Virus record (IMG/VR): IMGVR_UViG_3300045988_073284
DNA from: a virus
Reading direction: 5' to 3' (one strand)
Length of the DNA: 53,362 bases
The stretch's first letter is position 1; the number at the start of each line of letters is the position of its first letter. The position numbers and the translations under genes were made by a program. This document shows positions 4,715 through 49,824 of this stretch, piece by piece. The notes beneath the pieces were generated by a model. That model worked only from the letters and a program-made list of their open reading frames with translations, was not told where the DNA came from and did no database searches.

Positions 4715-5914
4715 ATGGATACAAATATGGTTCTTTATCTGCCTTTCGATGATCCAGAAGGATCAAAGGCTTATGATTTCTCTCAGTACAGGAACGATGC
4801 TGAGCTTTCTAACGGTGCTGGATTCACTAAGGATTCAGCACACGGCAAGGCTCTGGCTCTCAATCTTACAGGAGAGTGTTCTACAGTGACAGCGATTCCG
4901 CTCTCTGGAAACTTCACTCTCATGTGCTATGTTAAGAGTACCACAGATCTTGTATGGCTCATTAATTACAGCGGACTGGAGAACTACAGACAGGGATTCA
5001 TCAAACAATCTCTGGCGAACAGAACGACTGGCTATATCCAGTTAGTTTTCGTGAAGGAAGGAACAACACTTAAGGTATATGCTGAAAACAAGCTCCTGGA
5101 TGTGGTAAGCCTTCCAGACGGATCTCCTACAGGCTTCACACTGAATGATTTCAACCTGGCTGGCAGTGAGGCACAGGTGGATGATCTCAAAGTGTTTAAC
5201 AAGGCTATGTCTTTCACAGAGATCAGAGCTGCCTCTAACTACCAGACGGATGTAGAATATTACATCAACGGAAAGAACTTCAAGGACTTTGCTGTGGAGG
5301 TGTCTAAATCTGCTGGTCTGGTTGGTGGTCTTGCTAAAAAGTCAAGTCTGGAAGTGGACTGGGATGATTATCACGGAACAGTCAAGGATACCTCTAACCC
5401 AAGATACAAGGATAGGACAATCACGCTGCAATGCTTCATCCAGGCTTCCAGCAGATCCCAGTTTGTTTCCAGGGTAAGAGAGTTCTTCAATGAGTTTGAA
5501 GGAGGTGGTACTAAGCGTTTCGTCTGTGAGTATGATGGTGATGCCAAGCCTCTTGTGTATGAGGTCACACGTGAGGATGAAGCCGATCCAGATAAAACCT
5601 GGGGCAAGTATAACGAGGGCTTGATGGTTGGAACCTTCACTTTGAAGCTGGTAGAGTACAACCCTGTTAAGCGAGTGCTCAGACACATAGGATCAATAGC
5701 AAACACTGAATGTGTTATCGACTTCACAAGTTATAAGATGGTTGATATTTACTGGGGCGATGGCAGCATGACACCTAACGTGTCTGGATCCAAGCAGCAC
5801 GTGGTACACAATTATCCACAGCCAGGACAGTACGATGTGATCATGGCTGGTGTGATCGAGGATATAACTGATTTCAGTACTAACGATATTGTTATATGGG
5901 ACAATTTACATTAA
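4715..5914 (+). CDS. Distal tail protein (Dit-like) with N-terminal LamG-type domain and C-terminal PKD-type motif
   Basis: 399-aa ORF directly after the tape measure. The N-terminus has a LamG/concanavalin-like pattern (LYLPFDD...NDAELSNGAGFT...GKALAL...VDDLKVFNKAMS). The C-terminus YWGDGSMTPNVSGSKQHVVHNYPQPGQYDVIM fits the PKD signature (WGDG..H.Y..PG.Y.V). The Dit role is inferred from position. Confidence 0.6.
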   Translation: MDTNMVLYLPFDDPEGSKAYDFSQYRNDAELSNGAGFTKDSAHGKALALNLTGECSTVTAIPLSGNFTLMCYVKSTTDLVWLINYSGLENYRQGFIKQSLANRTTGYIQLVFVKEGTTLKVYAENKLLDVVSLPDGSPTGFTLNDFNLAGSEAQVDDLKVFNKAMSFTEIRAASNYQTDVEYYINGKNFKDFAVEVSKSAGLVGGLAKKSSLEVDWDDYHGTVKDTSNPRYKDRTITLQCFIQASSRSQFVSRVREFFNEFEGGGTKRFVCEYDGDAKPLVYEVTREDEADPDKTWGKYNEGLMVGTFTLKLVEYNPVKRVLRHIGSIANTECVIDFTSYKMVDIYWGDGSMTPNVSGSKQHVVHNYPQPGQYDVIMAGVIEDITDFSTNDIVIWDNLH

Positions 5915-8900
5915 TCAAACGCAATGGCACAAGGATTCCTCTGAATAAGAGGATTCCTTTCTGTGCCGTCAAGACAGCTCAGCAAAGCCGATCACTTATG
6001 GCAGATGATACCGTCACACTGGAGGTGGTATCCACCTTTCTGATCGACTTTGAGAAGGGCGATAAGATCAAGATAGATTCCGACTGGTACACCATCCGTA
6101 CAACGGTGGATCGCACCAAAAATTCAGAGGATCAGTATAACTATTCTATCACTCTGTATGGCTGTATCTATGATCTTATGAAGGTGATGTTCCGTGATAC
6201 AGACGTAAACGGAAGATCCACCTCTCTAACCTTCGATCTTACCTATTCCATAAAGGATTTCGTGAAGGTGATCATCTACAACATGAACAGAGACTACCCT
6301 GGCGAATGGGTGTTTGATGATAAGGACTGCCCAGAAACTGAGCCTAAGACGGTAAGTTTCTCATGCCAGAACTGCCTACAGACACTGCAGAACGAATGCA
6401 AGGACTTTGATGTGGACTTCCAGATCACTACAGATAAGGATGGTATCCACCATATCAAGATCGGTAAGTTCGGATCTGTAGTAACACCACCAAATGGTGA
6501 GAAATACTTCCAGTGGGGACGTGGGCACGGTCTTTTCACGCTGGTGGAAGGTAAGGTGGATGATAAGGCGATCATTACCAGAATGTATGGTGAAGGTGGA
6601 ACCAATAACATTCCAACAGCCTACAGAAATTATTCTGAAAGGCTCCAGCTTCCTTATCCTCAGAGACTGAATAAGCATGATCATAAATTATCTGATGGTA
6701 CGGTCGTAAAAGCTAAAACGATGCAGATAGGCTGCACAGATGATAATAAGCGATACATAGAAGATGCGGCTCTGAGCAAGAAGATCGGTGTGGAGGAAGA
6801 TGCCATCCAGAACGATGATATTTATCCTAGACGCACAGGCAAGGTGACAGCTCTGGGTGATGATGTCTATACCTTCATGGATGATACAATGGACTTCGAT
6901 CTGAAAGCATCCAACAGCAATGGAACCACATACCTCATAGATGGAACCTCTGCAAAGATCACGTTTATCACTGGTCGTTTGGCTGGTCGTGAGTTTGAGC
7001 TACATGATTACGATCACAGCGCAAAGAAATTCATCCTTAAGCCATATAAGGATGCACGTGGGCTTGTGTTCCCTACAAGCAACACCACAGCCTTCCAGAT
7101 CAGAGAAGGAGATCAGTATAAGATCACGGATATAATCATGCCAGATTCTTACATAGAGGATGCTGAGGAAGATCTTTGGTTCTATGTATATGACAAGTTC
7201 TTACAGGCTAAACAAGCCAGGGCACAGTATGCGCTTACCTTCTCCAGAAGCTATTTTATTGAGAATATGCCAAAGGATAGCGATAGCTGCCTTTTCACTC
7301 CTGGTGATTACGTTCCTATCAAGGATGAGCGTTTCAACCTGGAGAAGAATATCCGTATCCAGAAGGTTGAGAGGAACCTGTTACTGAGACACGATTACAC
7401 TCTCACTATTTCTGATACAGCAACGATCAGCATCATAAACCAGGCTGTTATCAACGTACAGAAGCACGACACGATCCTGGAGGCGAACCGTCTGAAAGAT
7501 CTTACCAGGGCAAAGTATGGCTGGAGAACAACAGAGGAACTGAGAAACATGATCTACGATCCAGACGGATATTTCGATACAGACAACATCAAGCCAAACA
7601 GTATAGACACAAATATGCTCACTGTAGGCTCCAAGAGCCAGCAGTTTGTTCTGGCAGACGTGATCATGCAAGCTAACCTGGGTGGTGATCCTAACCTTTT
7701 CAAGGCTACATCTGGAACACTTTGCCATCTTTCGATCTCAGACACAGATATTAGGTACTGGAAGATAGCTGCACTGGAAGCTACCTTATCAGAGTCTGGA
7801 GGTTATTATCTCTTTGCCAAGTGCTCAAAAAAAGGAGATACAGGATCCTGGTATTTAACCCAGGAACAGCTTAAGTTTGAGCCTACATCCGATCCGAATA
7901 ACTACTACTTCCAGGTTGGAGTTCTTTCTTCTGTGTATGATGCCAGCTGGAGAGACTTTGTGACTACATACGGTTTCACACGTATCAATGGCAACACGAT
8001 CACTACTGGTAAGATTGTTACTTCTGATGGATATTGCTACCTGGATCTGGATGGTAACAAGTTCAGAATGGGAGATAAGCAGTCTTACATAGATTACAAC
8101 GTTCAGCAACGAGGACAGATCACGCTTCATAACGTAAGGCTCCTATCTACCTCTGGAGATTCTTCTGAGATCGGTGTGTACCGTGGCGAATACAACGCAT
8201 CCTATGTGTACTATAAGGGTGATGAAGTTTCTTACACGAATAATGGTGTGACAGCCACATACAGATACATCTACAGCGAACCTACTAAGGGCTATGCTCC
8301 TACTGTAGGAACCTACTGGCAGTGTATTGCCAAGGGTAAGGATGGAGAAGCTGGAAAAACACCAAAGATCGGAGATAACGGAAACTGGTGGATCGGATCT
8401 GTAGATACAGGTATCAAGGCAGAAGGTGTGGATGGCAAGGGTGTTAATATCCTGGGATCCTATGACAGCGAGGCTGAGTTAAAGGCTGCACATCCTAAAG
8501 GCTCACCTGGTGATGCTTATATCGTGGCTGGAGATCTATACAGCTGGGATGATGTTCACAAGGTGTGGAAGAATGGCGGTCGTATCAAGGGTAATGCTGG
8601 CGATACTCCTTACATTATGAATGGTTACTGGTGGATCGGAGCCACTAACACAGGTGTCAAGGCTAAGGGTGAGGATGCTGTGATGTATGAGATCCTTCCT
8701 AGTGTTCGCATCTATTCAGATACGATGGTGGCGGCTGGCGATTCTCTGAGAGTGTCGCTTAACAAGATCACTGGTTCAAACACAGAGAACTTAACATCCC
8801 TTCCAAAGGGATTCTCCTTAACCCTGTTTGGATATGGAACCGATCACATAGGTAAGCCTACATCTAAGGCGATCTCTCTTGATACCTCATATAAGCTGAG

Positions 8901-11900
8901 TGATTTGAAAACATCCCTTAAGGCAAATATGAGCCTGGAGGTGGTTCTGGCTGGAACAAACCAGGTGATCGTAACAAAGATCTCAATGCCATACGTCAAG
9001 GATGGAGAGAAGGGAACACCAGGCGCACCTGGTGAGGATGGAAGAACCAGCTACACCCACTTCAAGTATTCCAACGATGGCGGTTTGTCGTTTACAGGCA
9101 ACAATGGAGAAGAACCAGGATCATACCTGGGGCAGTACACAGACTTCGAGGAAATGGATAGCAGCAATCCTACGAGATACACCTGGGCACTGATCCAGGG
9201 TGAAGCTGGAAACAGCGGTGTTGATGCTGCTGCAAGCTCCTACTTTGAATGTCGGTACGCAAAAAACGGATCTACAGTTGAGCCTCCTACTCTCGATGCT
9301 ACAGCCCTGGAGCCTACAGGATGGAGCCTCCAGATGCCAAGTGTCGGCAAACTGGAATATCTCTGGATGAGTATGGCACAGAAAAGTAAGCTGGTAGAGC
9401 AAACCTATTGCCATATACCTTTCACGGCTAAGGATGGATGCAAGGATATTACTGGTAACTATACCACAGAGTTAGGTTCTGGCGGTTCCATAGTTACAGA
9501 AGGAGATCGCCAATATCTGAGCCTTCCAGATGATTCAGATCTGAGAATTAAGTATGATCTTCCTTTCGGGGAGAATTTCACGCTATTCTTCTGGTTCAAG
9601 ACGGATCAGAAGAAGATCGGATGGGCTATCCAGGATGCTGCCTTCACTCTCAATATGAAGGAAATGGATGTGAAGCCTGGAACATGGATGCACCTGGCAT
9701 TCAGATTCAGTGATCGCACCGTATCATGCTTTTTGAATGGTGTAAGACAGGCAACGGCTTCTCTTAACAAGAAGCTGATCGGTTTCACGGTCTATGATAG
9801 CAATATGTATGCAAGCGCAAACTGCTATGATGAGTTTAGGATGGTCAATGGTGCTCTGGCTGATGTTGATATTGTCAAGGTGTACCAAGATAAGGCAGAT
9901 AAGCTGCTTTCCAACTGGAGTGTGCCTACACGTATTTCACCTTACGATGGCAAGGATGGAGTTTCGGTAATGGCACGTTATTCATCCGATAAGCAGAACT
10001 GGCATACATCATTTCAGACTGGAGATCAATGGATGCAAACATCATCCGATTCTGGCAACACCTGGGGAGAGGCTTGCAAGATCGTGGGCGAAGCTGGTGC
10101 AAACGGAAAGTACACAGATTATTCATTCGCCACTTCCAAGGATCTCACGACTAAGGATGTGTTCACTTCACCAAGGATCTACACAACGTGGTCGGATGCG
10201 CCTGTAGCTACTACCAAAGATTATCCTTATCTCTGGATGAAGGTGGTAGAGGTAGATTCCAACGGAAAGAAATCACAGGCACGTTACACCAGGCTTACAG
10301 GAGATCCTGGCAAGGATGGTGTTGATGGTGTTGATTCCAAGTATATCTATCTGAGGGGTACAGGCATGAACAGGACAGCAGACGGACAGGTTACGATCTA
10401 CAACGGAACAAAGACTGAGACGATCACTTGTGCCACCAGAGGCTTAACCCTGGTAAGGGTGGATCGTTCTTCTCTGGCTGTGCTGGAAACGTACAAATGT
10501 GACACATACAGCAATGTAGATTCCACGCTGACTGCATTCGCCAAAAAGATCAAGGCATATAACTCTGAATGTTTCATTTGCCTGGTAAGCTATGATGCTG
10601 TAGCCTGGAATGATAGCTTGATAGATGCGCTTAAGTATTGTGGAGGAACTGATCTTCACAATAGGGCACAGGGTCGTTATCCATTTGCGTTCCTGGGAAT
10701 ACCAGGCATGGCACAAGGTTACGCTCAGATGATCCAAAGCTCTGATTCTTCCAGTGCTCCTTATGCTGAGATCTCTGCTTATATCGCTAACAGGATGTTC
10801 GCTACTGCCAAAGCTGTAGAAGAAACCTGTAGGCTTGATCTCTCTAACGAGAACGAAACAGTTACTTGCGATTCAAGCGGAAAGGTAATCGGTTCAATCC
10901 AGGGAACCCAGGCTACTCTCTATAAGGGATCCTCTGTAGTATCTGGTATATATTATTCATGTTCAGCAAGCGGATGTAGCTGTAGTTTCAGTACCACTAC
11001 TGGAAAGGCTACTAACATAGATATGAGTAGCAATAAGGCAACACTAACAATCTCATGCACTTATGATGGTGTTACCTATTCGGCTGTATATACGATTTCT
11101 AAGGTATATCCTGGCAAGGATGGATCGGATGCTGTATCAAGATACCTGGAGCTATCATGTAACAGTGTCAAGGTTGATAAGAGTGGAAATGTATCTCCTT
11201 CCAAGATCACTGCAAAACAGATGAAACAGGTTGGTGGTAAGGCTCCAGAAAACACTGCCGACTTGTATCTGGTAGGTCTTGCATCATCCAAGAGCACAGC
11301 GACACAGCTTAAGGCGAAGTCTATCACGATCAACGTATCAAGCTCAGATTCATGGGTGGATTTCACGCTTAAGGATGGATCTGGCAACGTTTATGACACA
11401 GAACGTGTTCCAGTGATCAAGGATGGAAAGGATGGCACAAATGGTACAAACGGTAAGGATGGAACCAACGGAAAGGACGGTGCTCCTGGCACTCCAGGAA
11501 AGGATGGTGCTCCAGGAACACCTGGTAAGGACGGAAGGGATGGAATTGATGGAAAAGATGGTAGAGACGGAACAGATGGCTATAGCCTGGCTCCTATCTA
11601 TCGTGGAGAATATTCAGCATCCAAGACTTACTACGGAACCCAGTACCGTGTTGATATTGTCAAGTACAATGGTATCTATTACGTGGCACGTGTCGATGCA
11701 GGAACCTTCTCTAATGTGGCTCCTACGAACACATCCAAGTGGAACCCTTTCGGTGCTCAGTTTGAGAGCATAGCAACTAACTTGCTTCTGGCTGAGGGTG
11801 CTAATATCGGAGACTGGTTCCTGTCTGGAGGTAAGATCGTTTCTACTCTGAGTACAACATCCAGCGGAAAGATCACTCTTGATGCTAAGGGAGGTTTGAT

Positions 11901-12609
11901 CCAGGTGGAGAGTGCTATATCTGGTGGAGATCATTCACTATACACCACCATGGGTGCTAAGATCACTCTTGATGCAAACAGAGGTGTAGTACAGGCAACT
12001 GCAAAGAATGCGCCAAGCTATTCAACAGGAACCGCTTATATGTCACCATCTGGAATATTCGCTAACATGGCTGGAACCGATTCCATATCAGCATCAATAG
12101 GAAGATCGCACAGATCGGCTATCGTGGGTCTCGGATTCGCTAATGTATCTAAGTCTGCTTATGAGTTGAATGCTGATGAAACGCTTGTAGCTGGTGTATA
12201 TGGTAGAGCTGATAACCAGGGGTCAGCTCCAGCATACGGTGGATATTTCTGGGATCTCAAAGCGTGTGGACTGATCCTTAACACTAGGTTCATAGGTGAT
12301 AGTTCCAGCTATAGTGAACGCTGTATTCCTAAAAGCGTATCATTCGTTATCGGATTGTGTAACAGGAATGTAGTTAAGGATGTATATCTGCCTAACGACA
12401 CTAAAAACGGAAGAATAATCAAGTTCAAGCAGATGGGAGATGGAGCAATGCGTGTTCGACCGATGTCTGGGCAGCATATCTACGATGATACAAGTGAGAA
12501 TGATTACTATGATTGTGGAGAAGGTCAGTGCCTGGAGTTCGTCTTTGGTATATGGGTGAAAGGTTCTACCACCACTAATGTATGGACTGTAAGTAAGTAT
12601 AAATATTAA
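5896..12609 (+). CDS. Giant tail tip / tail fibre protein (2237 aa), multi-domain
   Basis: The ORF overlaps the previous gene by 19 nt and follows the TMP and Dit. It carries a collagen-like Gly-X-Y run (11425..11580) and an internal LamG-like segment around 9400..9900 (FTLFFWFKTDQ..WMHLAFRF..FLNGV..DEFRMVNGAL). YRGEY...Y modules are duplicated (starting 8179 and 11599). NG.WWIG..TG.KA.G motifs occur near 8370..8430 and 8617..8670. Confidence 0.75.
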   Translation: MGQFTLIKRNGTRIPLNKRIPFCAVKTAQQSRSLMADDTVTLEVVSTFLIDFEKGDKIKIDSDWYTIRTTVDRTKNSEDQYNYSITLYGCIYDLMKVMFRDTDVNGRSTSLTFDLTYSIKDFVKVIIYNMNRDYPGEWVFDDKDCPETEPKTVSFSCQNCLQTLQNECKDFDVDFQITTDKDGIHHIKIGKFGSVVTPPNGEKYFQWGRGHGLFTLVEGKVDDKAIITRMYGEGGTNNIPTAYRNYSERLQLPYPQRLNKHDHKLSDGTVVKAKTMQIGCTDDNKRYIEDAALSKKIGVEEDAIQNDDIYPRRTGKVTALGDDVYTFMDDTMDFDLKASNSNGTTYLIDGTSAKITFITGRLAGREFELHDYDHSAKKFILKPYKDARGLVFPTSNTTAFQIREGDQYKITDIIMPDSYIEDAEEDLWFYVYDKFLQAKQARAQYALTFSRSYFIENMPKDSDSCLFTPGDYVPIKDERFNLEKNIRIQKVERNLLLRHDYTLTISDTATISIINQAVINVQKHDTILEANRLKDLTRAKYGWRTTEELRNMIYDPDGYFDTDNIKPNSIDTNMLTVGSKSQQFVLADVIMQANLGGDPNLFKATSGTLCHLSISDTDIRYWKIAALEATLSESGGYYLFAKCSKKGDTGSWYLTQEQLKFEPTSDPNNYYFQVGVLSSVYDASWRDFVTTYGFTRINGNTITTGKIVTSDGYCYLDLDGNKFRMGDKQSYIDYNVQQRGQITLHNVRLLSTSGDSSEIGVYRGEYNASYVYYKGDEVSYTNNGVTATYRYIYSEPTKGYAPTVGTYWQCIAKGKDGEAGKTPKIGDNGNWWIGSVDTGIKAEGVDGKGVNILGSYDSEAELKAAHPKGSPGDAYIVAGDLYSWDDVHKVWKNGGRIKGNAGDTPYIMNGYWWIGATNTGVKAKGEDAVMYEILPSVRIYSDTMVAAGDSLRVSLNKITGSNTENLTSLPKGFSLTLFGYGTDHIGKPTSKAISLDTSYKLSDLKTSLKANMSLEVVLAGTNQVIVTKISMPYVKDGEKGTPGAPGEDGRTSYTHFKYSNDGGLSFTGNNGEEPGSYLGQYTDFEEMDSSNPTRYTWALIQGEAGNSGVDAAASSYFECRYAKNGSTVEPPTLDATALEPTGWSLQMPSVGKLEYLWMSMAQKSKLVEQTYCHIPFTAKDGCKDITGNYTTELGSGGSIVTEGDRQYLSLPDDSDLRIKYDLPFGENFTLFFWFKTDQKKIGWAIQDAAFTLNMKEMDVKPGTWMHLAFRFSDRTVSCFLNGVRQATASLNKKLIGFTVYDSNMYASANCYDEFRMVNGALADVDIVKVYQDKADKLLSNWSVPTRISPYDGKDGVSVMARYSSDKQNWHTSFQTGDQWMQTSSDSGNTWGEACKIVGEAGANGKYTDYSFATSKDLTTKDVFTSPRIYTTWSDAPVATTKDYPYLWMKVVEVDSNGKKSQARYTRLTGDPGKDGVDGVDSKYIYLRGTGMNRTADGQVTIYNGTKTETITCATRGLTLVRVDRSSLAVLETYKCDTYSNVDSTLTAFAKKIKAYNSECFICLVSYDAVAWNDSLIDALKYCGGTDLHNRAQGRYPFAFLGIPGMAQGYAQMIQSSDSSSAPYAEISAYIANRMFATAKAVEETCRLDLSNENETVTCDSSGKVIGSIQGTQATLYKGSSVVSGIYYSCSASGCSCSFSTTTGKATNIDMSSNKATLTISCTYDGVTYSAVYTISKVYPGKDGSDAVSRYLELSCNSVKVDKSGNVSPSKITAKQMKQVGGKAPENTADLYLVGLASSKSTATQLKAKSITINVSSSDSWVDFTLKDGSGNVYDTERVPVIKDGKDGTNGTNGKDGTNGKDGAPGTPGKDGAPGTPGKDGRDGIDGKDGRDGTDGYSLAPIYRGEYSASKTYYGTQYRVDIVKYNGIYYVARVDAGTFSNVAPTNTSKWNPFGAQFESIATNLLLAEGANIGDWFLSGGKIVSTLSTTSSGKITLDAKGGLIQVESAISGGDHSLYTTMGAKITLDANRGVVQATAKNAPSYSTGTAYMSPSGIFANMAGTDSISASIGRSHRSAIVGLGFANVSKSAYELNADETLVAGVYGRADNQGSAPAYGGYFWDLKACGLILNTRFIGDSSSYSERCIPKSVSFVIGLCNRNVVKDVYLPNDTKNGRIIKFKQMGDGAMRVRPMSGQHIYDDTSENDYYDCGEGQCLEFVFGIWVKGSTTTNVWTVSKYKY
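11425..11580 (+). repeat. Collagen-like Gly-X-Y coding repeat (17 consecutive triplets) inside the fibre gene
   Basis: Translation GKDGTNGTNGKDGTNGKDGAPGTPGKDGAPGTPGKDGRDGIDGKDGRDGTDG, read in the frame of ORF 5896..12609. Confidence 0.9.
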
Positions 12610-13730: not shown

Positions 13731-15086
13731 ATGGGTTTAATTTTAGGTAGTGGTAGCGGAACAAAACCACAGTTCCCTTATGATATGTGGTATGGTGTTC
13801 AGCACGACAACACAAGCAAGGACTACAAATTAAAGAGAGTGGGCAACCTGGAACTGCATAAAACTTTGCCGCTCCAGAACCGTATGAAGCGTTTCGTGGA
13901 AAATGAGGATGGTACAGTTAAGTACTACCTTCATCCTAACGATTCTCGCTTAACAGAAGGTGGAGCTAAGGCGATCCTGGATGGATCAGATGGTAATGTG
14001 ATGCTGGAGCTTCCAAAGTTCTATTTCCGTCTGGAGATCAATGGTACATCATGGATCTATGCTATCAGTGAGTATCCGCTTCCAGGTTTCACTAAGGTAG
14101 AACGACAAACGATCTCTCCTTGGTTCGCTACTTATGACAATGTGAATAAGAAGCCAGTATCGGCTTCCTTCCTTACATGGGATGGCGATAATGTGAAGCG
14201 AGACGAAAACGGTCTGCCAGTATTTTCAGCTAATGCCGCTAATTGCCGTGGTGGTAGCAATAACGCTTCATGGGATGGAACGTACAGAAGTCTGATCGGT
14301 ATGGGTCGTACCTCAGTAAGCAAGAGCACTGTTCGTGGATGGTGTAACGCTGTTGGTAATGGCATCCATCATGGAGCTGGTAGAGCTTACAACACGATAA
14401 AGTGGTTCCAGCGTATCGAATACGCTTCAATGTACAACCAGGATGCTTACACGGCTCAGCTTACAGATGAGGGCTATCACCAGGGAGGTTTAGGATCTGG
14501 ATGCTCTTGTGATGGTAGTCAGTGGAGCACCCACAACGGATACAATCCTTTCATACCTTGCGGTGTCACCATTCCGCTTGGTAACAACACAGGAAAGGTT
14601 TCCTATACTGTTAAGAACTGGGCTGGTGGTGGCACAGATAAGGTATTCCAGGTAACATCATACCGTGGTTTCGGTGTTCCTTTTGAATATCTCTGGATGC
14701 TGGCAGATGATTTTCTGGTATATTATGGCGAAAGCGAAAGCACGCTGTATGCATGCAAGGATCCTTCTAAGTTCACTTCTCACTCTGATTCTGCCACTAC
14801 GGTTCCAGAAGGATATGAGGCGGCTGTATCACTGCCACGTGATGAAGGTTGGGGACTTGTAGAGGGTATCACCAGTTACGGCTTATCAGCTGTTAGCAAG
14901 GTAGGTGGCTCACCTATTACAGGTAATACTGATTATTTTTGGATGAATGCCACAGTAGGCTGGTGGGGTGCTCTGCTCGGTGCGGGTGCGAATGATGGTG
15001 CGCATGCTGGGTTCGGCTGTCTGTCTGCGGGTCATCGCTCCTCGGCTTCGTATGCGTCTTTTGGGTTCCGCTTGTGCCGAAATTAA
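13731..15086 (+). CDS. DGR target protein 1: receptor-binding-type protein with C-terminal C-type-lectin/FGE-fold variable region
   Basis: 451-aa ORF. The C-terminus ...WWGALLGAGANDGAHAGFGCLSAGHRSSASYASFGFRLCRN is encoded by VR1. VR1 matches the TR downstream except at TR adenines. The stop comes 13 nt after the VR, as in classical Mtd-like targets. Confidence 0.9.
   Translation: MGLILGSGSGTKPQFPYDMWYGVQHDNTSKDYKLKRVGNLELHKTLPLQNRMKRFVENEDGTVKYYLHPNDSRLTEGGAKAILDGSDGNVMLELPKFYFRLEINGTSWIYAISEYPLPGFTKVERQTISPWFATYDNVNKKPVSASFLTWDGDNVKRDENGLPVFSANAANCRGGSNNASWDGTYRSLIGMGRTSVSKSTVRGWCNAVGNGIHHGAGRAYNTIKWFQRIEYASMYNQDAYTAQLTDEGYHQGGLGSGCSCDGSQWSTHNGYNPFIPCGVTIPLGNNTGKVSYTVKNWAGGGTDKVFQVTSYRGFGVPFEYLWMLADDFLVYYGESESTLYACKDPSKFTSHSDSATTVPEGYEAAVSLPRDEGWGLVEGITSYGLSAVSKVGGSPITGNTDYFWMNATVGWWGALLGAGANDGAHAGFGCLSAGHRSSASYASFGFRLCRN
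14964..15073 (+). repeat. DGR variable region VR1
   Basis: Hand alignment to TR 15223..15332 (offset 259). 110 nt with 17 mismatches, every one opposite a TR adenine (for example AAT->GGT, GAT, CAT, TCT, GCT, TAT; TAT->TGT; ATT->TTT). No non-adenine mismatch. Confidence 0.9.
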
Positions 15087-15222: not shown

Positions 15223-15332
15223 AGGGGTGCTCTGCTCGGTGCGAATGCGAATAATGGTGCGAATGCTGGGTTCGGCTATCTGAATGCGAATAATCGCTCC
15301 TCGAATTCGAATGCGAATATTGGGTTCCGCTT
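15223..15332 (+). repeat. DGR template repeat (TR)
   Basis: Non-coding copy between the target and the RT. It carries ten AAT triplets plus TAT and ATT exactly where both VRs vary. It is followed by ttttaccg, whereas both VRs have ttgtgcc (an IMH*/IMH-like distinction). Confidence 0.9.
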
Positions 15333-15430
15333 TTACCGTGATTTCTAATTTAATAAAGATATTGTAGGAGTTTCGCCACCCTACCACACAGGATCCACTG
15401 GCACGTCTGGTGGATGGTAAAATAATATAG

Positions 15431-19493: not shown

Positions 19494-19565
19494 GTCTCTA
19501 TAGTTCAACGGATAGAACAGCGGTTTCCTAAACCGTAGATCTGGGTTCGATTCCCAGTAGGGATA
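19494..19565 (+). tRNA. tRNA-Arg (anticodon CCT)
   Basis: Hand-folded cloverleaf. Acceptor stem gtctcta/tagggat (two G-U pairs). D stem gttc/gaac with a GG in the loop. Anticodon stem gcggt/accgt and loop ttCCTaa (U33, A37). 4-nt variable loop. T stem ctggg/cccag with loop ttcgatt. Discriminator A; no encoded CCA. Confidence 0.85.
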
Positions 19566-19632
19566 CTTAAATCATCATAAATGATTCAGTGTTTTGCTGC
19601 ACTTTCAGCAAAAAATGATTATTTTTGCGGTG

Positions 19633-19659
19633 CGAAGTTCTACAAATATTCCACAAAAG
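19633..19659 (+). repeat. Direct repeat B (cgaagttctacaaatattccacaaaag), right of the tRNA and just upstream of the int start
   Basis: See 19332..19359. The two copies are 301 bp apart and bracket the tRNA. Confidence 0.6.
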
Positions 19660-19667
19660 CAAAAATA

Positions 19668-20948
19668 ATGGTTACATTCAAAGCAGAAGTGTACGCTCAC
19701 CAACGCAAGAAGGATGGAACGTACAACATTAAAATCAGAGTAACGCATCACCAGAAGAAGCGTTATCTTTCCACATCCTGGTTCGTGACGAAGGAGGATC
19801 TTACCAGATCCATGAAGATAAAGAACCAGAAATACATAGATCTTACCAGCGATCTCATTAAGGTGTATCGCTCCAGGTGCGAGGTTCCAAGTGAGAGGCT
19901 TGATGAAATGGATATAGACCAGGTAGTGGATCTTATCCAGAGTAAAAGACAGGAAGCCTGGGATCTGGATATTATCCAGTTTGCCGATCAGTTTATCAAG
20001 GAGCTTAGAAATACTGGGCATGAAGGCAATGCCAGAAGTTACGAGATAGCTCTCGCATCTTTGAAGAATTTCCTGGATCGTGATTCTCTATCGGTTAAGG
20101 AGATCACTGTGGGGTTCCTCAGAGACTGGATAGCCTGGATCAAGAAAGGCAAGAATATCACTACAGGTTTCGCTCCACATAACTATGTATCAAGACTGAG
20201 AGCCATCTTCAACCAGGCAAAGAAGATCTACAACGATGAAGATGCTGGCATCATCCGCATCCCTAACAGCCCTTTCCAGCACATAGACTTTCCCAAACAG
20301 CCAGTTCCAGAGAAAAGAGCAATCACGCTGGAACAACTGCAGAAGATCGCTTCTCTCCAGGATCGGAGCCAGTACCAGGTAGGAACCAACAGGTTTAATT
20401 TCTCCAGAGATCTCTTTCTTCTCTCCTTCTCTCTGATCGGTATGAATGCCGCTGATCTGTATGAGGTGGAAGCTGGAAGCCTGGTCGATGGAAGGATCAC
20501 ATACAACAGACGCAAGACCAGGAACAGAAGGGCAGATCAAGCTGAGATCTCAGTGAAGGTAGAACCAGAGGCTGCTGAGCTGATCCAGAGATACAGAGAT
20601 CCGTCTGGTGTGAAGCTATTCGATTTCTATCATAGATATGGAACCGTGGGATCATTCGAGGCGAACCTTAACAAGGGCTTGAAGAAGGTCGGAACTGCAA
20701 TAGGTGTTGAAGGGCTGGAGTTCTATGCTGCCAGGCATACCTGGGCAACGCTGGCAGTGAACCAGGCTGGAGTTGATAAGTACACGGTTCACCAGGCTCT
20801 TAACCATGTGGATGATTCTATGCGTAACACGGATATGTACATCAAGAAGTCCTATGATTGCAACGATCTCGCTAACAGAAAGGTTCTGGATCTGTCTGGT
20901 ATCGGTGTTTTGCTTAAGCAAAAGCCAGATATAGCTGGTAAACAATAA
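19668..20948 (+). CDS. int: Tyrosine recombinase / integrase
   Basis: Track ORF 19581..20948; the likely start is ATG 19668 (MVTFKAEVYAHQRKKDGTYNIKIRVTHH..., the arm-binding N-terminus typical of Bacteroidales integrases). Catalytic-region motifs are AARHTWATLA (HxxR) and ALNHVDDSMRNTDMYIKK (terminal Tyr). Confidence 0.9.
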   Translation: MVTFKAEVYAHQRKKDGTYNIKIRVTHHQKKRYLSTSWFVTKEDLTRSMKIKNQKYIDLTSDLIKVYRSRCEVPSERLDEMDIDQVVDLIQSKRQEAWDLDIIQFADQFIKELRNTGHEGNARSYEIALASLKNFLDRDSLSVKEITVGFLRDWIAWIKKGKNITTGFAPHNYVSRLRAIFNQAKKIYNDEDAGIIRIPNSPFQHIDFPKQPVPEKRAITLEQLQKIASLQDRSQYQVGTNRFNFSRDLFLLSFSLIGMNAADLYEVEAGSLVDGRITYNRRKTRNRRADQAEISVKVEPEAAELIQRYRDPSGVKLFDFYHRYGTVGSFEANLNKGLKKVGTAIGVEGLEFYAARHTWATLAVNQAGVDKYTVHQALNHVDDSMRNTDMYIKKSYDCNDLANRKVLDLSGIGVLLKQKPDIAGKQ

Positions 20949-21170
20949 GTTACAAGCCTTATTTTGCTTAAGCAAAAATATACCAGAGAATTTTGCTTAA
21001 GCAAATAGATTTTTCACGATTTATTTTGCTTAAGCAAAAGTTATAATCTACTGAAATACAAGTATTTGCAAGGCTCGCATAAATATGTATTATCTTTTTA
21101 TTTTGCTTAAGCAAAAAACATAAAACGTTTATTACCAGATAATTACAGAGCCTATTTTGCTTAAGCAAAA
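20908..21170. repeat. Array of six copies of the 16-bp perfect palindrome TTTTGCTTAAGCAAAA
   Basis: Copies read at 20908, 20962, 20991 (imperfect, ...gcaaat), 21024, 21101 and 21155. The first lies inside the last codons of int. Spacing is irregular (54, 29, 33, 77 and 54 bp). An AT-rich tata-type tract follows at 21171..21235. Confidence 0.9.
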
Positions 21171-22881: not shown

Positions 22882-22921
22882 ACAAAGATAATAATATATT
22901 CTGAAATTAAGGCAAAAAATT

Positions 22922-26917: not shown

Positions 26918-27649
26918 ATGATGCTCAAAGTATTGGGATCTTCCAGTAAGGGAAACTGTTACATCCTGGAGAACGAAAGCGAGGCTCTGATATTGGAGGC
27001 TGGCATTAAGTTCCAGGATGTGAAGAAAGCCCTTAACTGGAATATCGCTAAAGTAAAAGGATGCCTGGTAACTCACAGACATGGTGATCACTCTAAGTAT
27101 ATCAAGGATCTGGCTGGATGCTTCTACACCCTGGCACTACAGGATGTATTTGATTTCAGAGGTGTGACTGGTAACAAGCTGGTTCCGATCACTCCTGGAG
27201 CCAGATACAAGTGTGGAAATTTCAAGATCATACCTTTTGAGGCGCACCACGATGTTCCCTGTGTCGGATACCTCATAGATCACCCAGATATGGGTACGCT
27301 GATGTTCCTCACAGATTCCTATGAATGTGACTACAGGTTTGCTGATCTACAGCATATACTTATCGAGTGTAACTATTCAGATAAGTACCTGGTGGAGGCG
27401 ATCAATGAAGGAAGAACCTTTGCAAGGCAACGAGATCGCCTTCTTAAATCGCACCTATCGCTTCCTGGATGCCTGGAGTTCCTTAACACCTCAGATCTAA
27501 GCAAGGTTAAGGAGATCGTTCTGATCCACCTATCAAGCGAAAACAGCAACGCTGATGAGTTTGTCAAGGCTGTTGAGGATGATGCCAGGAAACCTACTTA
27601 TGTAGCTTATCCAGGTGCTGAGATTGATATAACACGTATCTATGGCTAA
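26918..27649 (+). CDS. Metallo-beta-lactamase-fold hydrolase (probable nuclease partner of RecT)
   Basis: The motif VTHRHGDHSKY (HxHxDH) follows an N-terminal beta-strand LKVLGSSSKGNCYILE. The gene is adjacent to recT. Confidence 0.8.
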   Translation: MMLKVLGSSSKGNCYILENESEALILEAGIKFQDVKKALNWNIAKVKGCLVTHRHGDHSKYIKDLAGCFYTLALQDVFDFRGVTGNKLVPITPGARYKCGNFKIIPFEAHHDVPCVGYLIDHPDMGTLMFLTDSYECDYRFADLQHILIECNYSDKYLVEAINEGRTFARQRDRLLKSHLSLPGCLEFLNTSDLSKVKEIVLIHLSSENSNADEFVKAVEDDARKPTYVAYPGAEIDITRIYG

Positions 27650-28073
27650 GGTTCTGATCGAGAAGATTCATGGGCTGTTTGATCTTAAGCCTCTTTATGA
27701 ATATATCCGCACAAGAGCGGATGGAGTATTCAGAATAGAGGTTGTTCGGGTTAGAAAGAAAAGATCTGGAGATCAGAACGGCTGGCTATGGGGATGTATC
27801 TATCCTCTTATGCTTGATGCGATGATTGATGCTGGCTGGGAGTTCACCAGCTGTGAACAGCTTCACGAATACTTCAAGAACCTATTCACGGCAGAACAGG
27901 TAGTGAACAAAGAAACTGGTGAGATCGTCAAGTTTCCATCTTCTACAGCTGACATGGATACTGTGCAATTCTCCAGCTATTGTGAACAGCTCAGAAGCTA
28001 TGCCAGGGAATATCTTAACTGTAACATACCAGATCCAGATAAATTTTGGAAAGACAATGAAAAAGATTCCTAA
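27642..28073 (+). CDS. NinB/Orf-like recombination mediator
   Basis: KKRSGDQNGWLWGCIYPL parallels the lambda NinB motif RSLDQNRKLWACLGDV. 143 aa, within the recombination module. Confidence 0.5.
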   Translation: MAKVLIEKIHGLFDLKPLYEYIRTRADGVFRIEVVRVRKKRSGDQNGWLWGCIYPLMLDAMIDAGWEFTSCEQLHEYFKNLFTAEQVVNKETGEIVKFPSSTADMDTVQFSSYCEQLRSYAREYLNCNIPDPDKFWKDNEKDS

Positions 28074-28218
28074 CCACATGGTAACTGAGCTACAGAGGCT
28101 GGTTCCACTGATTATTGATAACGTTTCAGATACAAAGAATACCAGAGTACTGAATGCTATCAGAATAACGAAGAAGATTATTAAAAAGTTAGATAATTTA
28201 AAAGATATTGAAAAATGA
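28057..28218 (+). CDS. Small hypothetical protein (53 aa)
   Basis: Internal ATG of track ORF 27919..28218 (MKKIPNHMVTELQRLVPLIIDN...). Its stop overlaps the next start (ATGA). Confidence 0.35.
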   Translation: MKKIPNHMVTELQRLVPLIIDNVSDTKNTRVLNAIRITKKIIKKLDNLKDIEK

Positions 28219-28835
28219 AGGTAATAGAAGTAACAGAGAAAGAAGTAAAGGCTGCATTTGATGCGGCAAAGAGTGATGAGGTGAAGAATGTGCTGGCAGC
28301 ACTCTTTTGCAAGCCAGAGGATCGTGTTAAGCCATCCCTGGATGATTACAAGAGTATCAAGACATACGAAGATGCTTGTGAGGCACTTGGTGAAGAACCT
28401 GTAGAGGGATCTCTCGGAGATCATGTAGATAAGCATATTATCGCCTTAATTAAGCTGGAGACTATAAGCCGTGCTCTCTGGGGAAAGGACTGGCAACCTA
28501 AGCCAGATCCAGATGGTAGCAAGTATTTCTATTATCCTTGGTTCGCTCTCTACACTCAGTCTGAAATGGATTCTATGAGTGAGGAAGATAGGGGTGCTAT
28601 GCTCGGTGCGAGTGCGAATTCTGGTGCGAATGCTGGGTTCGGCTGTCTGATTGCGAATATTCGCTCCTCGGCTTTGTCTGCGGATTTTGGGTTCCGCTTG
28701 TGCCAGGAAACAGAGAAAAAGGCTAAGTATTTCGGTGTTCAGTTCAAGGAAATCTGGGCTGATTATCTGGCATTCCAGTTCAAGGAAATCTGGGCTGATT
28801 ATCTGGCATTCAATTTCACTGTAGAGAATAAATAA
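28215..28835 (+). CDS. DGR target protein 2: small (206 aa) C-type-lectin-fold variable protein in the early operon
   Basis: The segment ...YYPWFALY...RGAMLGASANSGANAGFGCLIANIRSSALSADFGFRLCQ... is encoded by VR2, which matches the TR at 15223..15332. Unlike target 1, 45 further codons follow the VR, including a tandem duplication. No signal peptide is evident. Confidence 0.85.
   Translation: MKVIEVTEKEVKAAFDAAKSDEVKNVLAALFCKPEDRVKPSLDDYKSIKTYEDACEALGEEPVEGSLGDHVDKHIIALIKLETISRALWGKDWQPKPDPDGSKYFYYPWFALYTQSEMDSMSEEDRGAMLGASANSGANAGFGCLIANIRSSALSADFGFRLCQETEKKAKYFGVQFKEIWADYLAFQFKEIWADYLAFNFTVENK
28590..28699 (+). repeat. DGR variable region VR2 (remote; 13,367 nt from the TR)
   Basis: Hand alignment to the TR gives 12 mismatches at TR adenines plus 2 at non-adenines (TR C15232 -> A28599; TR C15308 -> T28675). 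VR2 has the same 3' flank as VR1 (gggttccgcttgtgcc). Confidence 0.85.
28740..28811 (+). repeat. Perfect 2 x 36-bp tandem duplication (cagttcaaggaaatctgggctgattatctggcattc)
   Basis: 28740..28775 is identical to 28776..28811. It is in frame and encodes QFKEIWADYLAF twice, 41 nt after the end of VR2. Confidence 0.97.
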
Positions 28836-28845
28836 AATACAGATC

Positions 28846-29616
28846 ATGGCAAAAAGAGATAAGATGATGTTCGATGTGGGCTGGTGGCTGACGGATCCAA
28901 AAGTTAGAAGCCTGTCTGCTGAGGATCGTGCATTATTCGTGGATCTCTTATGCCAGATGTGGATCTCTCCAGAAAGAGGTGTGATGATCGGTGGATCCAT
29001 CCAGCATCCACTAACCAAACGTGAGATCATTTTCATGGTTGGTGGTGATACTGATGATGAGTGGCTGGATCGCCTGGTGGAAGCTGATGTGGTGTATATT
29101 AGGCAAGATGGAGCTTATTGTAATAGCTTGATGATGCACGATGCCCAGGTAAGCGAAGCCAGGCGAAAGGCTGGATCGAAGGGCGGTAAGAGTACGATGA
29201 GTGCTAACCGCCAGGTGGAGAAGCCGATCATTAAGGCAACACCACCAGTGAAAGCGAAGCCAAAGGATCCAGAAGGAAATATTTTCCAGGATCAGCAACC
29301 TCCAGAGGAAAAGGCTGCAAAGCCGAAGCATCAGAAAAAGCAATATGCTCAAAGCGTGACTATGACAGAGGAAGAATATAAGAGCCTCACAGAACAGTTC
29401 ACTGAGCCTGTTGCAAAGGAAATGATCGAGATCCTATCAAACTACAAGGGATCCAAAGGCAAAAAATATAAATCAGATTACAGGGCTATCCTCTCATGGG
29501 TGGTCGGCGCTTACAAGGAAAGACAAAATCGTTATTATGGCAGCAATAAAGAATATAAACGAAATAATCCAGAGCCTACAGCCACAGATCCAACGAGCTA
29601 CGAAAAGGATCTATAG
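28846..29616 (+). CDS. Replication organiser/initiator-like protein
   Basis: 256 aa. The N-terminus FDVGWWLTDPKVRSLSAEDRALFVDLLCQMW resembles the DUF1376/YdaU-type phage replication proteins. It lies immediately upstream of the DnaC-like loader. The call rests on position plus weak motif memory. Confidence 0.45.
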   Translation: MAKRDKMMFDVGWWLTDPKVRSLSAEDRALFVDLLCQMWISPERGVMIGGSIQHPLTKREIIFMVGGDTDDEWLDRLVEADVVYIRQDGAYCNSLMMHDAQVSEARRKAGSKGGKSTMSANRQVEKPIIKATPPVKAKPKDPEGNIFQDQQPPEEKAAKPKHQKKQYAQSVTMTEEEYKSLTEQFTEPVAKEMIEILSNYKGSKGKKYKSDYRAILSWVVGAYKERQNRYYGSNKEYKRNNPEPTATDPTSYEKDL

Positions 29617-30196
29617 ATCTCCTTTGAGCAAGGAGGATTCTTATAGGCTGTTGTATTATTGCTATAAGGCAGAGGTCGAAAAGAGAGGGCTTGTTATGAA
29701 GAATGATGAGCACATTCTTGGAGCTATTAAAGATGCCTCTAGCTGGCTGGTTGATGGCAAGAAGCCTGGTTTGCTCCTGTATGGAGGAATAGGCAACGGC
29801 AAGACAACGCTAGCAAATGCAATATGTATGTATATTAACCAGCTCATAGATTACAGTGAGTCTGGTGTGTACAGAACCACAGCGATCATAGTATCCAGAA
29901 AGTCTATGAGGGATGAGACAAGCAAGTATCTGGAGGAACTTAAGACTAAGGAAATGGTTTGCCTGGATGATCTTGGGGTCGAGGCTCCCACAGTCAAGTG
30001 TTACGGAAATGACATTTATCCCTTAACAGAATGGATCTATGCCAGGTACGAATATCCTCTATTCACGCTGGTTACGACAAACCTCAACATGGAACAGTTA
30101 TCAGAGCGGTATGGTTCCAGAATAGCTGATCGCATGGAGGAATACTTCAACAAGATACCGTTTACTCATGCAACGTATAGAAAAAAGACAAAATAA
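29537..30196 (+). CDS. DnaC/IstB-like AAA+ helicase loader
   Basis: Walker A is LLLYGGIGNGKTTLANAI and Walker B is MVCLDDLGVE. The track start overlaps the upstream gene by 80 nt, so the true start may be internal. Confidence 0.7.
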   Translation: MAAIKNINEIIQSLQPQIQRATKRIYRSPLSKEDSYRLLYYCYKAEVEKRGLVMKNDEHILGAIKDASSWLVDGKKPGLLLYGGIGNGKTTLANAICMYINQLIDYSESGVYRTTAIIVSRKSMRDETSKYLEELKTKEMVCLDDLGVEAPTVKCYGNDIYPLTEWIYARYEYPLFTLVTTNLNMEQLSERYGSRIADRMEEYFNKIPFTHATYRKKTK

Positions 30197-33744: not shown

Positions 33745-34236
33745 ATGAGCTGGAAAGAAATGATACAAGTGGAACGTGGAGCCGATATTACAGAAATGGA
33801 AGCTCCTATTCCTAACACGATTGGAGAAGGCTTCACCTTCTGCCTTAATGGTAAGGAATATACCACAATAGGTGGATATACGAAAGGAAAGCGTGATGTG
33901 GAGTTTTACATAACTTCTTATATCGGTTATTGTGGTGGAGCAGAGCATTACTATTGTTCTATTAGTATTTCTGTGGAAAACAGAAACGGAAACACAACTA
34001 TAGGAGGATACTGTGGTGGTATAGAAATTCCTAACGAGTACCAGAGTTTCAAAGCGAGTATAGTAAGACCTCTTACAAAAGAGGAAGCGGCAGACACTGA
34101 AAGATGGAAATGGTACAAAGAAGGTGACATGGTGGAAGCATTTTGCTCACTCAAAGAACTTTATAAATGTATCGAAACGATCCGTCAGATTTTTCCAGAA
34201 GATAAATGGAATGTAGTTATTAAAAGAAATTACTAG
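33745..34236 (+). CDS. Hypothetical protein
   Basis: 163-aa ORF with an internal repeat TTIGGYT / TTIGGYC. Confidence 0.5.
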   Translation: MSWKEMIQVERGADITEMEAPIPNTIGEGFTFCLNGKEYTTIGGYTKGKRDVEFYITSYIGYCGGAEHYYCSISISVENRNGNTTIGGYCGGIEIPNEYQSFKASIVRPLTKEEAADTERWKWYKEGDMVEAFCSLKELYKCIETIRQIFPEDKWNVVIKRNY

Positions 34237-48226: not shown

Positions 48227-49450
48227 ATGAGATCAATATTTAATGATTTTACGGATCTTGTGAAAGACGGTAAGCCTCTGGATCTCCTGGCTACATGGAG
48301 GAAAACCTTCGATAAGGCTAGCCAGAACGAGGCTACAATCTTCCAGAAGATGTACTGTGATACCTGGTGCGACTGGAACACACCTCAGATGTCACTCACA
48401 GCTGAGGGTGTGATCGGCAAGTACAACATCCGTTTCATGGCTACACTGATCGGTGATGAATCTCCTACACCTCTCAGACGTGCCGATGGCTTCGACACAT
48501 GGACTAAGGAGATCCCACGTGTGGGACACAAGTTCCCTATGACTGCTAGGGAGTATCGTAAGATGATGGAGGTGTATGAGAATCCTCATATCTCTGATAC
48601 GGCTAAGGTTAAGGCTATCGAAAAGACACTTCACGCATCTATGGAGGATGCTTATCTGGGTGTTAAGGATGTTATGGACTTCATCTTGCTCCAGGCATTC
48701 AGTAACGATGGTGTGGCTCAGTTTGAGCCAGAGGTAAACAACCCAGGCGGTCGTAAGTTTGAGATCGACTATTGCATGGATGAGGAAAACAAGCTCATTT
48801 CAGTCTATAATTGGACTGATGAGAATGTTAAGGCTGGCAAGGTATCGCCTATCCTCACACTCGCTGCAATTTGTTCAAGTCTCCGAAATCGTGGTATCGA
48901 GCCAGGTGAGATCTTGATGAGCCAGGATCTTTATTACTGGTTGCGCATGAACCCAGCAACACGTTTGCTTGTTCACGGATCAGACAAGAAGGATCAGACC
49001 GTTACAAAGTCTGAGCTTGAAACAGAGCTGACAGAGAACGAGATCCCTAACATTACTGTGGTTAAGCGCAGAATGGGCATTGATAAGGATGGTAAGCGCA
49101 AGACACTTGATCCTTGGGATCATAACTTCATCTGTATCAAGCCAGAGGGCAAGGTGGCTGAGATCCAGCCAGCGATCGAGGATAACCAGCTGATGGAGGA
49201 AAAGGATGTGGACTACATCAACGCTGGTAATGGTATCCGTATCGCTAAGTGGCGCACAGGTGAATCTACAGGACAGCAAGCCGCTGAGTACACCCAGGGA
49301 TCTGGTCGTTTGCTTCCTCTGATCACACGTATTGGTGAGATCGCTTGCGTACAGGTTCGTGGCTTCAAGGAGCAGACGATCGAGGGCGCAAACATTGATA
49401 CTAAATCGTTCGTCACACGATCTGAGTATGGCACAATCGAAACTCTCTAA
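48227..49450 (+). CDS. Major capsid protein candidate
   Basis: 407 aa. Size and position (after scaffold and decoration-like genes, before connector genes) support the call. No sequence motif could be verified. Confidence 0.6.
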   Translation: MRSIFNDFTDLVKDGKPLDLLATWRKTFDKASQNEATIFQKMYCDTWCDWNTPQMSLTAEGVIGKYNIRFMATLIGDESPTPLRRADGFDTWTKEIPRVGHKFPMTAREYRKMMEVYENPHISDTAKVKAIEKTLHASMEDAYLGVKDVMDFILLQAFSNDGVAQFEPEVNNPGGRKFEIDYCMDEENKLISVYNWTDENVKAGKVSPILTLAAICSSLRNRGIEPGEILMSQDLYYWLRMNPATRLLVHGSDKKDQTVTKSELETELTENEIPNITVVKRRMGIDKDGKRKTLDPWDHNFICIKPEGKVAEIQPAIEDNQLMEEKDVDYINAGNGIRIAKWRTGESTGQQAAEYTQGSGRLLPLITRIGEIACVQVRGFKEQTIEGANIDTKSFVTRSEYGTIETL

Positions 49451-49461
49451 CATATTCATAT

Positions 49462-49824
49462 ATGGGAAAGATTAAATTCGTAACTAAGGTAAAGAAGGTT
49501 TTCCGTGACAAGATCACTGGGAACCTTCTCAATCCTTGTGATACTCTCATTATTGAGAATGATACTGCCAGGTTGAATTTGTGTATCAGTAAGGGTGCTG
49601 TAGAGCTTGTTTCTGTTGAGACAGAATCCGACAACGACAAGGGAGGCAACCCTACTACTGTGTGTGTAAATGGTACAGAGTATGATCTGAATAAGGTCAA
49701 GGAAGCCCTTTCTGTTATTGGAGCCGCTGTAAATGCTAACGCTGGTTTCAACGGTGTAAATAACAAGGTCGCTTCTCTCGCTTCTGATCAGATCGAGGCT
49801 CTGGAAGCAGAACTTAATAAGTAA
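49462..49824 (+). CDS. Hypothetical structural-module protein
   Basis: 120-aa ORF directly after the capsid gene. Confidence 0.45.
   Translation: MGKIKFVTKVKKVFRDKITGNLLNPCDTLIIENDTARLNLCISKGAVELVSVETESDNDKGGNPTTVCVNGTEYDLNKVKEALSVIGAAVNANAGFNGVNNKVASLASDQIEALEAELNK

Follow-up and report, generated by a model that had tools for sequence, protein, structure and literature searches.

What use might a temperate phage have for a hypervariable protein encoded among its recombination and replication genes? Outside vertebrate immunity, diversity-generating retroelements (DGRs) are, to our knowledge, nature's only machinery for the targeted hypermutation of proteins; in phages they are regarded almost exclusively as a means of changing receptor specificity. 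The viral DNA analysed here (IMG/VR record IMGVR_UViG_3300045988_073284; the whole stretch of 53,362 nucleotides is referred to as the window) carries a single DGR, the template repeat (TR) of which matches one variable region (VR1) in the adjoining gene for a 451-aa tail protein and a second one (VR2) in the gene for a 206-aa protein of the family phrog_11581, at a distance of 13.4 kb. We conclude, with a probability of about 0.9, that the single DGR of this temperate phage acts on VR2 as a functional second target. A conserved and apparently non-structural target in the replication module implies that DGRs have a second use, inside the infected cell.

Alignment and base-by-base comparison reproduced the match of the one TR to the remote VR2 (coordinates are collected in Table 1), as it had been described in a sequence-only reading of the window. 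VR2 and the TR differ at 14 positions, 12 of which are TR adenines, in exact agreement with that reading, and the two non-adenine mismatches it had listed (C>A at 28599 and C>T at 28675) were both confirmed. With adenines at ~20% of the TR positions (23 adenines), the binomial probability that at least 12 of 14 mismatches fall at A is ~2.5e-7. The TR holds 10 AAT, one TAT and one ATT codon-equivalents, and the 12 variable codons of VR2 (aa 133, 135, 136, 139, 144, 146, 148, 149, 153, 155, 157 and 158) stand in the same reading frame as those of VR1. VR1 itself, placed at the extreme C-terminus of the tail protein, differs from the TR at 16 sites within 14965-15073, each of them a TR adenine, and further has an A>T at 14964. 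Both variable regions end in the same initiation of mutagenic homing (IMH) sequence, GGGTTCCGCTTGTGCC, in agreement with the identical 3' flanks noted earlier, and the corresponding IMH* of the TR, GGGTTCCGCTTTTACC, differs from it at two positions. This distinction was present in every copy recovered, and the IMH was kept in all 12 of the VR2 copies found. VR2 is not at the extreme C-terminus of its protein, as had also been pointed out, being followed by 44 residues. The DGR reverse transcriptase (RT) contains the motifs GNFTSQ (GxxxSQ) at aa 240 and YMDD at aa 280. In a repeat scan of the window, VR1, TR and VR2 (14965-15084, 15224-15343 and 28591-28710) formed the sole three-copy repeat family and, the terminal assembly overlap excepted, the longest internal repeat.

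Relatives of the 206-aa protein indicate that VR2 is diversified in nature. Searching with the protein yielded 3,324 clusters at 90% identity (those looked up had about two members each), and the best 120 of these 3,324 were aligned; they are 85-93% identical, 192-194 aa long and mostly from contigs of ~53 kb. Variation in this alignment is concentrated at precisely those 12 codons that contain TR adenines. Entropy there is 2.9-3.5 bits for the ten AAT codons, which show 12-15 residue types, 1.3 bits for TAT and 2.0 bits for ATT; the remaining VR columns, like almost all of the scaffold, do not vary. At the nucleotide level, adenine-masked TR patterns found 3 viral and 11 metagenome stretches, which gave four within-genome pairs of VR1 and VR2. 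VR2 was unique in each of 12 genomes, with 147 differences at A sites and 2 at non-A sites, both of the latter private to the window. Because this search imposed non-A identity on the last 38 nt, the first 71 nt serve as the unbiased sample, and these alone gave the same adenine-confined pattern. The TR sequence was identical in five genomes. VR1 showed 60 adenine-site differences and one other; its cluster has 2,634 members, and the 14 compared were hypervariable at these same 12 TR-A codons.

Population data for both regions thus bear out the earlier statement that the same codons are varied in VR1 and VR2, and a monomorphic VR2 beside a hypervariable VR1 was not seen at the between-genome level. 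The accompanying caveat, that VR2 might be an older or decaying target, is refuted: in relatives both non-A sites match the TR, and VR2 is as hypervariable in the population as VR1. Since residues 129 and 154, M and L in the window, are the TR-encoded L and S in relatives, these two are private point changes rather than decay. One VR2 copy, on contig ERZ773186.160 (L107, 607-644), is nearly naive, with only 3 adenine-site differences from the TR, which is consistent with a recent homing event having introduced few changes. Cysteine (TGT) is favoured at the TR TAT codon, occurring at VR2 aa 144 (28644-28646) in 86 of the 120 relatives and in the majority of VR1 copies (15018-15020). This preference suggests selection on the variable patch, and possibly involves the invariant Cys of GFRLC.

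Within one genome, VR1 and VR2 agree at only 1-6 of the 12 variable residues in the four genomes compared (by-eye peptide count; 1, 6 and 1 in three metagenome contigs and about 4, namely N, C, A and F, in the window), and the agreeing residues are mostly unmutated TR Asn or the Cys and Phe common in the population. Such low agreement argues against a shared ligand, four pairs being too few for confidence. Following the established DGR model, the TR would be transcribed and copied by the RT with adenine-specific errors, and the cDNA would then replace any copy that has TR homology and an IMH, that is, VR1 next door and, in trans, VR2. The 12-codon patch, which has ~9e12 possible variants, lies in an acidic protein of roughly 23 kDa (isoelectric point 4.8).

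An arrangement of this kind has been documented before. Benler et al. 2021 (PMC8008677) described a Quimbyvirus DGR with two targets, one belonging to the structural module, plus a second, 'ORF 84', that is distal, non-structural and adjoined by methyltransferase, nuclease and tRNA-ligase genes, and suggested that the latter takes part in the conflict between phage and host. Dahlman et al. 2025 (PMC12629997, Extended Data Fig. 3c) reported four prophage species in which a second VR lies distal to the RT near counter-defence genes, and cite Benler et al. and the LoVEphage paper for the same phage; the counter-defence speculation is common to both studies. The unusualness initially claimed for the locus was therefore overstated. 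What differs from the 2025 report is that the double-VR prophages there come without a family-level or structural analysis of the target. The literature on Versailles, on the TGPI isolates and on the zeta crAss-like phages contained no mention of this second target.

The Quimbyvirus/LoVEphage system shares with the window a homologous protein and the use of one TR with two VRs, one in the tail module and one in a distal small non-structural protein, with adenine-only differences. Its homologue (QVQ57199) is 38% identical over the full length, and 17 of the 17 differences in its VR2 are at adenines. It belongs to a different lineage, however, with a 71-kb genome against the 53-kb, lambdoid-type genome of the window, probably that of a Segatella phage, and has a different TR sequence. 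Its gene lies among methyltransferase and RtcB genes on the strand opposite the RT and the structural genes, whereas in the window NinB and the replisome organizer flank the gene, which shares the RT strand. Closer is Bacteroides phage Versailles (ON453897.1), the homologue of which is 63% identical and occupies the same slot between NinB and the replisome organizer, with all differences at adenines in both VR2 (14/14) and VR1 (13/13). A survey of relatives thus found the same remote target in both phages. In each lineage VR2 matches its own phage's TR, as expected if homing continually overwrites it, and the scaffold, the reading frame and the IMH are kept down to 38% identity. The Versailles homologue (WAK79127; L001 6001-6582; ON453897.1 10181-10762) is labelled 'tail protein' in GenBank, probably a mis-annotation, as the only visible basis for the label is a 41-residue match of the VR to phrog_5302.

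Homologues extend well beyond these phages. An exhaustive search for phrog_11581 gave 629 clusters at 50% identity (E<=1e-3), mostly of 180-220 aa, and prophage copies occur in Segatella hominis, Bacteroides, Phocaeicola and metagenome-assembled genomes of rumen Bacteroidales. We fetched 79 viral loci with 10-kb flanks; the TR is beyond reach in most of them, so the absence of a partner is uninformative. Five distant members nonetheless had a TR partner within the DNA obtained; the shares of differences lying at A were 12/12, 13/13, 13/13, 12/12 and 12/13. Two loci (L065, 6994-9083, and L075, 10001-12175) hold a cassette of two tandem phrog_11581 paralogues (125-158 aa), a TR and a phrog_1423 RT, with no tail gene inside and with DNA methyltransferase and exonuclease/FtsK-like genes on its flanks. 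As these cassettes hold only the two phrog_11581 copies, the family can be the sole local DGR target. Taken together with the Versailles and LoVEphage data, the phrog_11581 scaffold is a recurrent DGR target of Bacteroidales phages, its VR segment being continually overwritten by the TR of whichever phage it resides in.

The scaffold itself is well conserved. An alignment of 60 diverse members shows the motifs RIKTxEDAC..LG and AY.KLRII.AALNEGW.P.F...RYYPWF.LYT, a variable stretch rich in N, Y, S and A that ends in G(S/F)RL, and a conserved C-terminal helix, ELA.Y.G.QFI.LWADY; the match of the window protein is full length (residues 1-190 on profile positions 1-196 of 200). AlphaFold2 gave a predicted local distance difference test score (pLDDT) of 40 from 121 near-identical sequences, and the diverse 60-member alignment was then used, from which a model with a pLDDT of 81 and a predicted template modelling score of 0.74 was obtained. 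The model consists of N-terminal helices, a short strand (41-44), helices 51-58 and 73-89, a strand 106-114, a hairpin (129-133/139-148) that bears the variable residues and is of low confidence, the GFRL motif after it, and C-terminal helices (167-203).

The sequence-only reading had called the protein a lectin-fold binder, which we were unable to verify. The C-type-lectin and formylglycine-generating enzyme models of Pfam (FGE-sulfatase, DUF1566, Lectin_C) matched none of the 60 diverse members at E<=1; a Foldseek search of the pLDDT-81 model against the PDB gave a best E of 2.2 with template modelling scores below 0.2 and listed no C-type-lectin protein, and a PDB profile search for phrog_11581 found nothing. 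In BFVD, the Foldseek matches were all to uncharacterised members of the family, including one from a crAss-like virus. In our reading, the order of predicted secondary structures would be consistent with a minimal C-type-lectin topology, and the T-Y-E-D-A-C motif is reminiscent of the WxxAxxxC helix. Similarity between the VR2 protein and the tail target is limited to the VR-encoded segment (39 aa by BLASTP, 37 columns by hhalign), and outside this TR-templated segment the two scaffolds are unrelated in sequence.

Where the gene lies was also described correctly at the outset: profile matches agree that it is within the recombination/replication module, between NinB and the replisome organizer and DnaC-like genes. 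The order is CI-like repressor (minus strand), SbcC-like, RecT-like, metallo-beta-lactamase (MBL) hydrolase, NinB, target, replisome organizer, DnaC-like loader and pyrophosphatase, and the target is in a co-directional block running in the direction of the cro-side operon, its ATG overlapping the stop of the open reading frame (ORF) upstream (ATGA, 28215-28218). Hydropathy bore out the description of a small protein with neither signal peptide nor transmembrane segment, no hydrophobic segment being found in the 206 aa (maximum 19-residue Kyte-Doolittle mean 0.96, within the VR). A lipoprotein reading of 'LAALFC' was considered and ruled out, as the 24 residues before it are highly charged and the Cys is missing in LoVEphage. 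The gene also contains an in-frame 36-nt tandem duplication (28740..28818, plus strand, 2.2 copies, 95% match), which lengthens the conserved C-terminal helix by 12 aa and is found in the window genome but in none of the 120 relatives.

From this context the VR2 protein may be a non-virion intracellular binder, the variable surface of which tracks a variable partner during infection; that partner would most plausibly be a component of host defence or of a competing element, an anti-defence or takeover function being suggested by gene context alone. As a tentative extension to the whole family, it is possible that phrog_11581 is a dedicated, antibody-like hypervariable binder of Bacteroidales phages, non-virion, intracellular and made early, with a scaffold lacking a recognisable C-type-lectin fold, which recognizes and neutralizes fast-evolving proteins of host immunity or of competitors and is sometimes the exclusive DGR target, as in L065 and L075. 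Several points weigh against VR2 as a working target or against the proposed role of its product. Diversification of VR2 is judged from diversity between genomes and not from within-sample reads of the window genome, and we infer the timing of expression, the intracellular location and the binding function of its product. No Avd-like gene was recognised among the ORFs flanking the cassette (Pfam, PHROGs, NCBIfam), and the DNA 3' of VR2, which shows no hairpin, has no greater folding propensity than shuffled sequences (z = 0.02). The 206-aa protein had no match in Pfam, NCBIfam or the defence models of PADLOC and so offers no functional handle. The most distant member sampled (L079, 26% identity) adjoins an ORF with weak tail-fibre-like matches. 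A 2026 preprint (10.64898/2026.03.05.709809), moreover, reports no DGR acting on a known anti-defence protein, with most targets unannotated.

It may be, alternatively, that the protein is made from the early region and assembled into the particle as an accessory receptor-binding or adhesion protein, that is, a conventional structural target whose gene happens to lie far away. Among characterised phage DGR targets, almost all are indeed tail or receptor-binding proteins (PMC8144416), the VR2 protein and the tail protein have the same TR-templated segment, and both the neighbour of L079 and the GenBank label in Versailles would fit. Yet the gene has recombination, replication or DNA-modification neighbours in every sampled lineage except L079, and was never found in a morphogenesis module; the LoVEphage copy is on the strand opposite the structural genes; the 'tail protein' label goes back to the short VR match; and the limited agreement of VR1 with VR2 does not favour a common receptor. 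We consider a virion role unlikely.

Expression from the prophage is another way in which the VR2 protein might serve, as a diversified sensor or exclusion factor acting in the lysogen on proteins of superinfecting phages. The phages in question are temperate and have an integrase and a CI-like repressor, family members occur in Segatella, Bacteroides and Phocaeicola prophages, and DGR-diversified proteins have been suggested as bacterial immune receptors (PMC10053308). A gene embedded in the cro-side recombination/replication operon, overlapping the upstream stop, would however be expected to be repressed in lysogens, no Bacteroides-type promoter match was found directly upstream of it and there was no PADLOC match, all of which make the proposal quite improbable. 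That VR2 is a decaying or bystander target, kept by TR homology and its IMH and diversified without adaptive value, we regard as very improbable and disfavour, given that its two non-adenine mismatches, odd tandem duplication and lack of a 3' hairpin stand against TR bases at both sites in relatives, the conservation of scaffold, frame and IMH to 38% identity with a VR2 that follows each lineage's TR, the 629 clusters with their conserved motifs, phages whose only local DGR targets are two phrog_11581 copies, and the Cys preference.

Comparison with better known DGRs sets the remote second target of the window apart. As in BPP-1 (Mtd), there is a GxxxSQ RT, TR/VR changes are adenine-specific and a 3' IMH is distinguished from IMH*. 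BPP-1, in contrast, has one adjacent target, a C-type-lectin tail fibre with the VR at its extreme C-terminus, together with Avd and a 3' hairpin, two factors that not all DGRs have, whereas the window has two targets, of which the second is remote and continues for 44 aa beyond its VR, and no Avd or VR2 hairpin could be recognised. In tentaclin-type DGRs (PMC10743442) one TR likewise serves two proteins alike only in the VR-encoded beta-hairpin, but both are in the cassette and are read as receptor-binding, unlike the second target here, 13 kb off in the replication module. DGRs of Legionella, Treponema denticola and cyanobacteria also use a TR in trans on distant IMH-bearing VRs (PMC8144416, PMC10743442), the targets there being cellular surface or signalling proteins and not a phage early-region protein.

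Both the arrangement and the idea of a role in conflict are thus already published, and the window adds a different lineage, which probably infects Segatella. Remote targets could not be detected in the largest global DGR survey (Roux et al. 2021; PMC8144416), and later work mentions them only in passing. Added here are the recognition that the remote target is one large family, population-level proof, from between-genome data, that VR2 is diversified in nature, cassettes with phrog_11581 as the sole local target, and the confinement of its likeness to the tail target to the TR-templated segment. As a cultured relative that is active in vivo (B. caecimuris I48, OMM12 mice), Versailles makes the question of the binding partner tractable.

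Table 1. Positions of the DGR components, their targets and neighbouring genes in the window, and of the corresponding features in related phages and loci
Feature	Position	Strand	Remarks
Target gene 1, 451-aa tail protein	13731..15086	+	phrog_5302 'tail protein', E 8e-100
VR1	14964..15073	+	in target gene 1
IMH of VR1	15063-15078		
TR	15223..15332	+	non-coding; between tail-target gene and RT
IMH*	15322..15337	+	3' end of TR
DGR RT, 410 aa	15431..16663	+	phrog_1423, E 1.7e-109; Pfam RVT_1
Integrase	19581-20948		tRNA gene directly upstream
NinB/Orf recombination mediator	27642..28073	+	upstream neighbour; phrog_72, E 1.8e-19
Target gene 2, 206 aa, acidic	28215..28835	+	phrog_11581, E 1.2e-72
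VR2	28590..28699	+	encodes aa 126-162 of the 206-aa ORF
IMH of VR2	28689..28704	+	identical to IMH of VR1
Replisome organizer	28846..29616	+	downstream neighbour; phrog_13246, E 8e-50
DnaC-like loader	29537-30196		after replisome organizer; phrog_50, E 2.5e-30
Versailles TR	53831-53945		
Versailles VR1	53629-53743		tail protein
Versailles VR2	10550-10661		homologue of target gene 2
LoVEphage TR and VR1	TR 49383-49500, VR1 49670-49787	minus	
LoVEphage VR2	34004-34111	plus	in homologue of target gene 2
L020			neighbours: MBL hydrolase, NinB; before replisome organizer
L061			neighbours: RecT-like, MBL hydrolase; before DnaD-like loader
L071			neighbours: DNA methyltransferase, anti-repressor
L066			neighbour: phosphoadenosine phosphosulfate (PAPS) reductase
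L022			neighbour: RtcB
L104			neighbour: SbcC-like

No close relative turned up when the DGR cassette was compared with GenBank phages by megablast. Among prophage copies of the VR2 protein, that of Segatella hominis BCRC 81118 (Prevotellaceae; NZ_SGVY01000010.1; L088 10001-10582) is the closest at 87% identity, and the host of the window phage is probably Segatella/Prevotella rather than Bacteroides. The Bacteroides-type promoter consensus TTTG-N17-23-TAnnTTTG has 5 matches in the window against 1.1 expected; one of them (22883-22916, minus strand) is upstream of the CI-like repressor, and none is directly upstream of the VR2 gene.

The ends of the window carry an exact 141-nt direct repeat (1-141 and 53222-53362); as this is a circular-assembly overlap, the genome is complete and circular, at ~53,221 bp. 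Its temperate-phage gene set comprises the integrase and the CI-like repressor. A tRNA gene just upstream of the integrase (19494-19565) may be the phage's own gene or have a link with the attachment site. Two 70-nt repeats, 73% identical (20908-20977 and 21101-21170) and each bounded by the palindrome TTTTGCTTAAGCAAAA, separate the integrase from the repressor and could be operators, terminators or recombination sites. A 2,237-aa ORF (5896-12609) with collagen-like Gly-X-Y repeats at 8996-9043 and 11417-11545 is probably a tail fibre.

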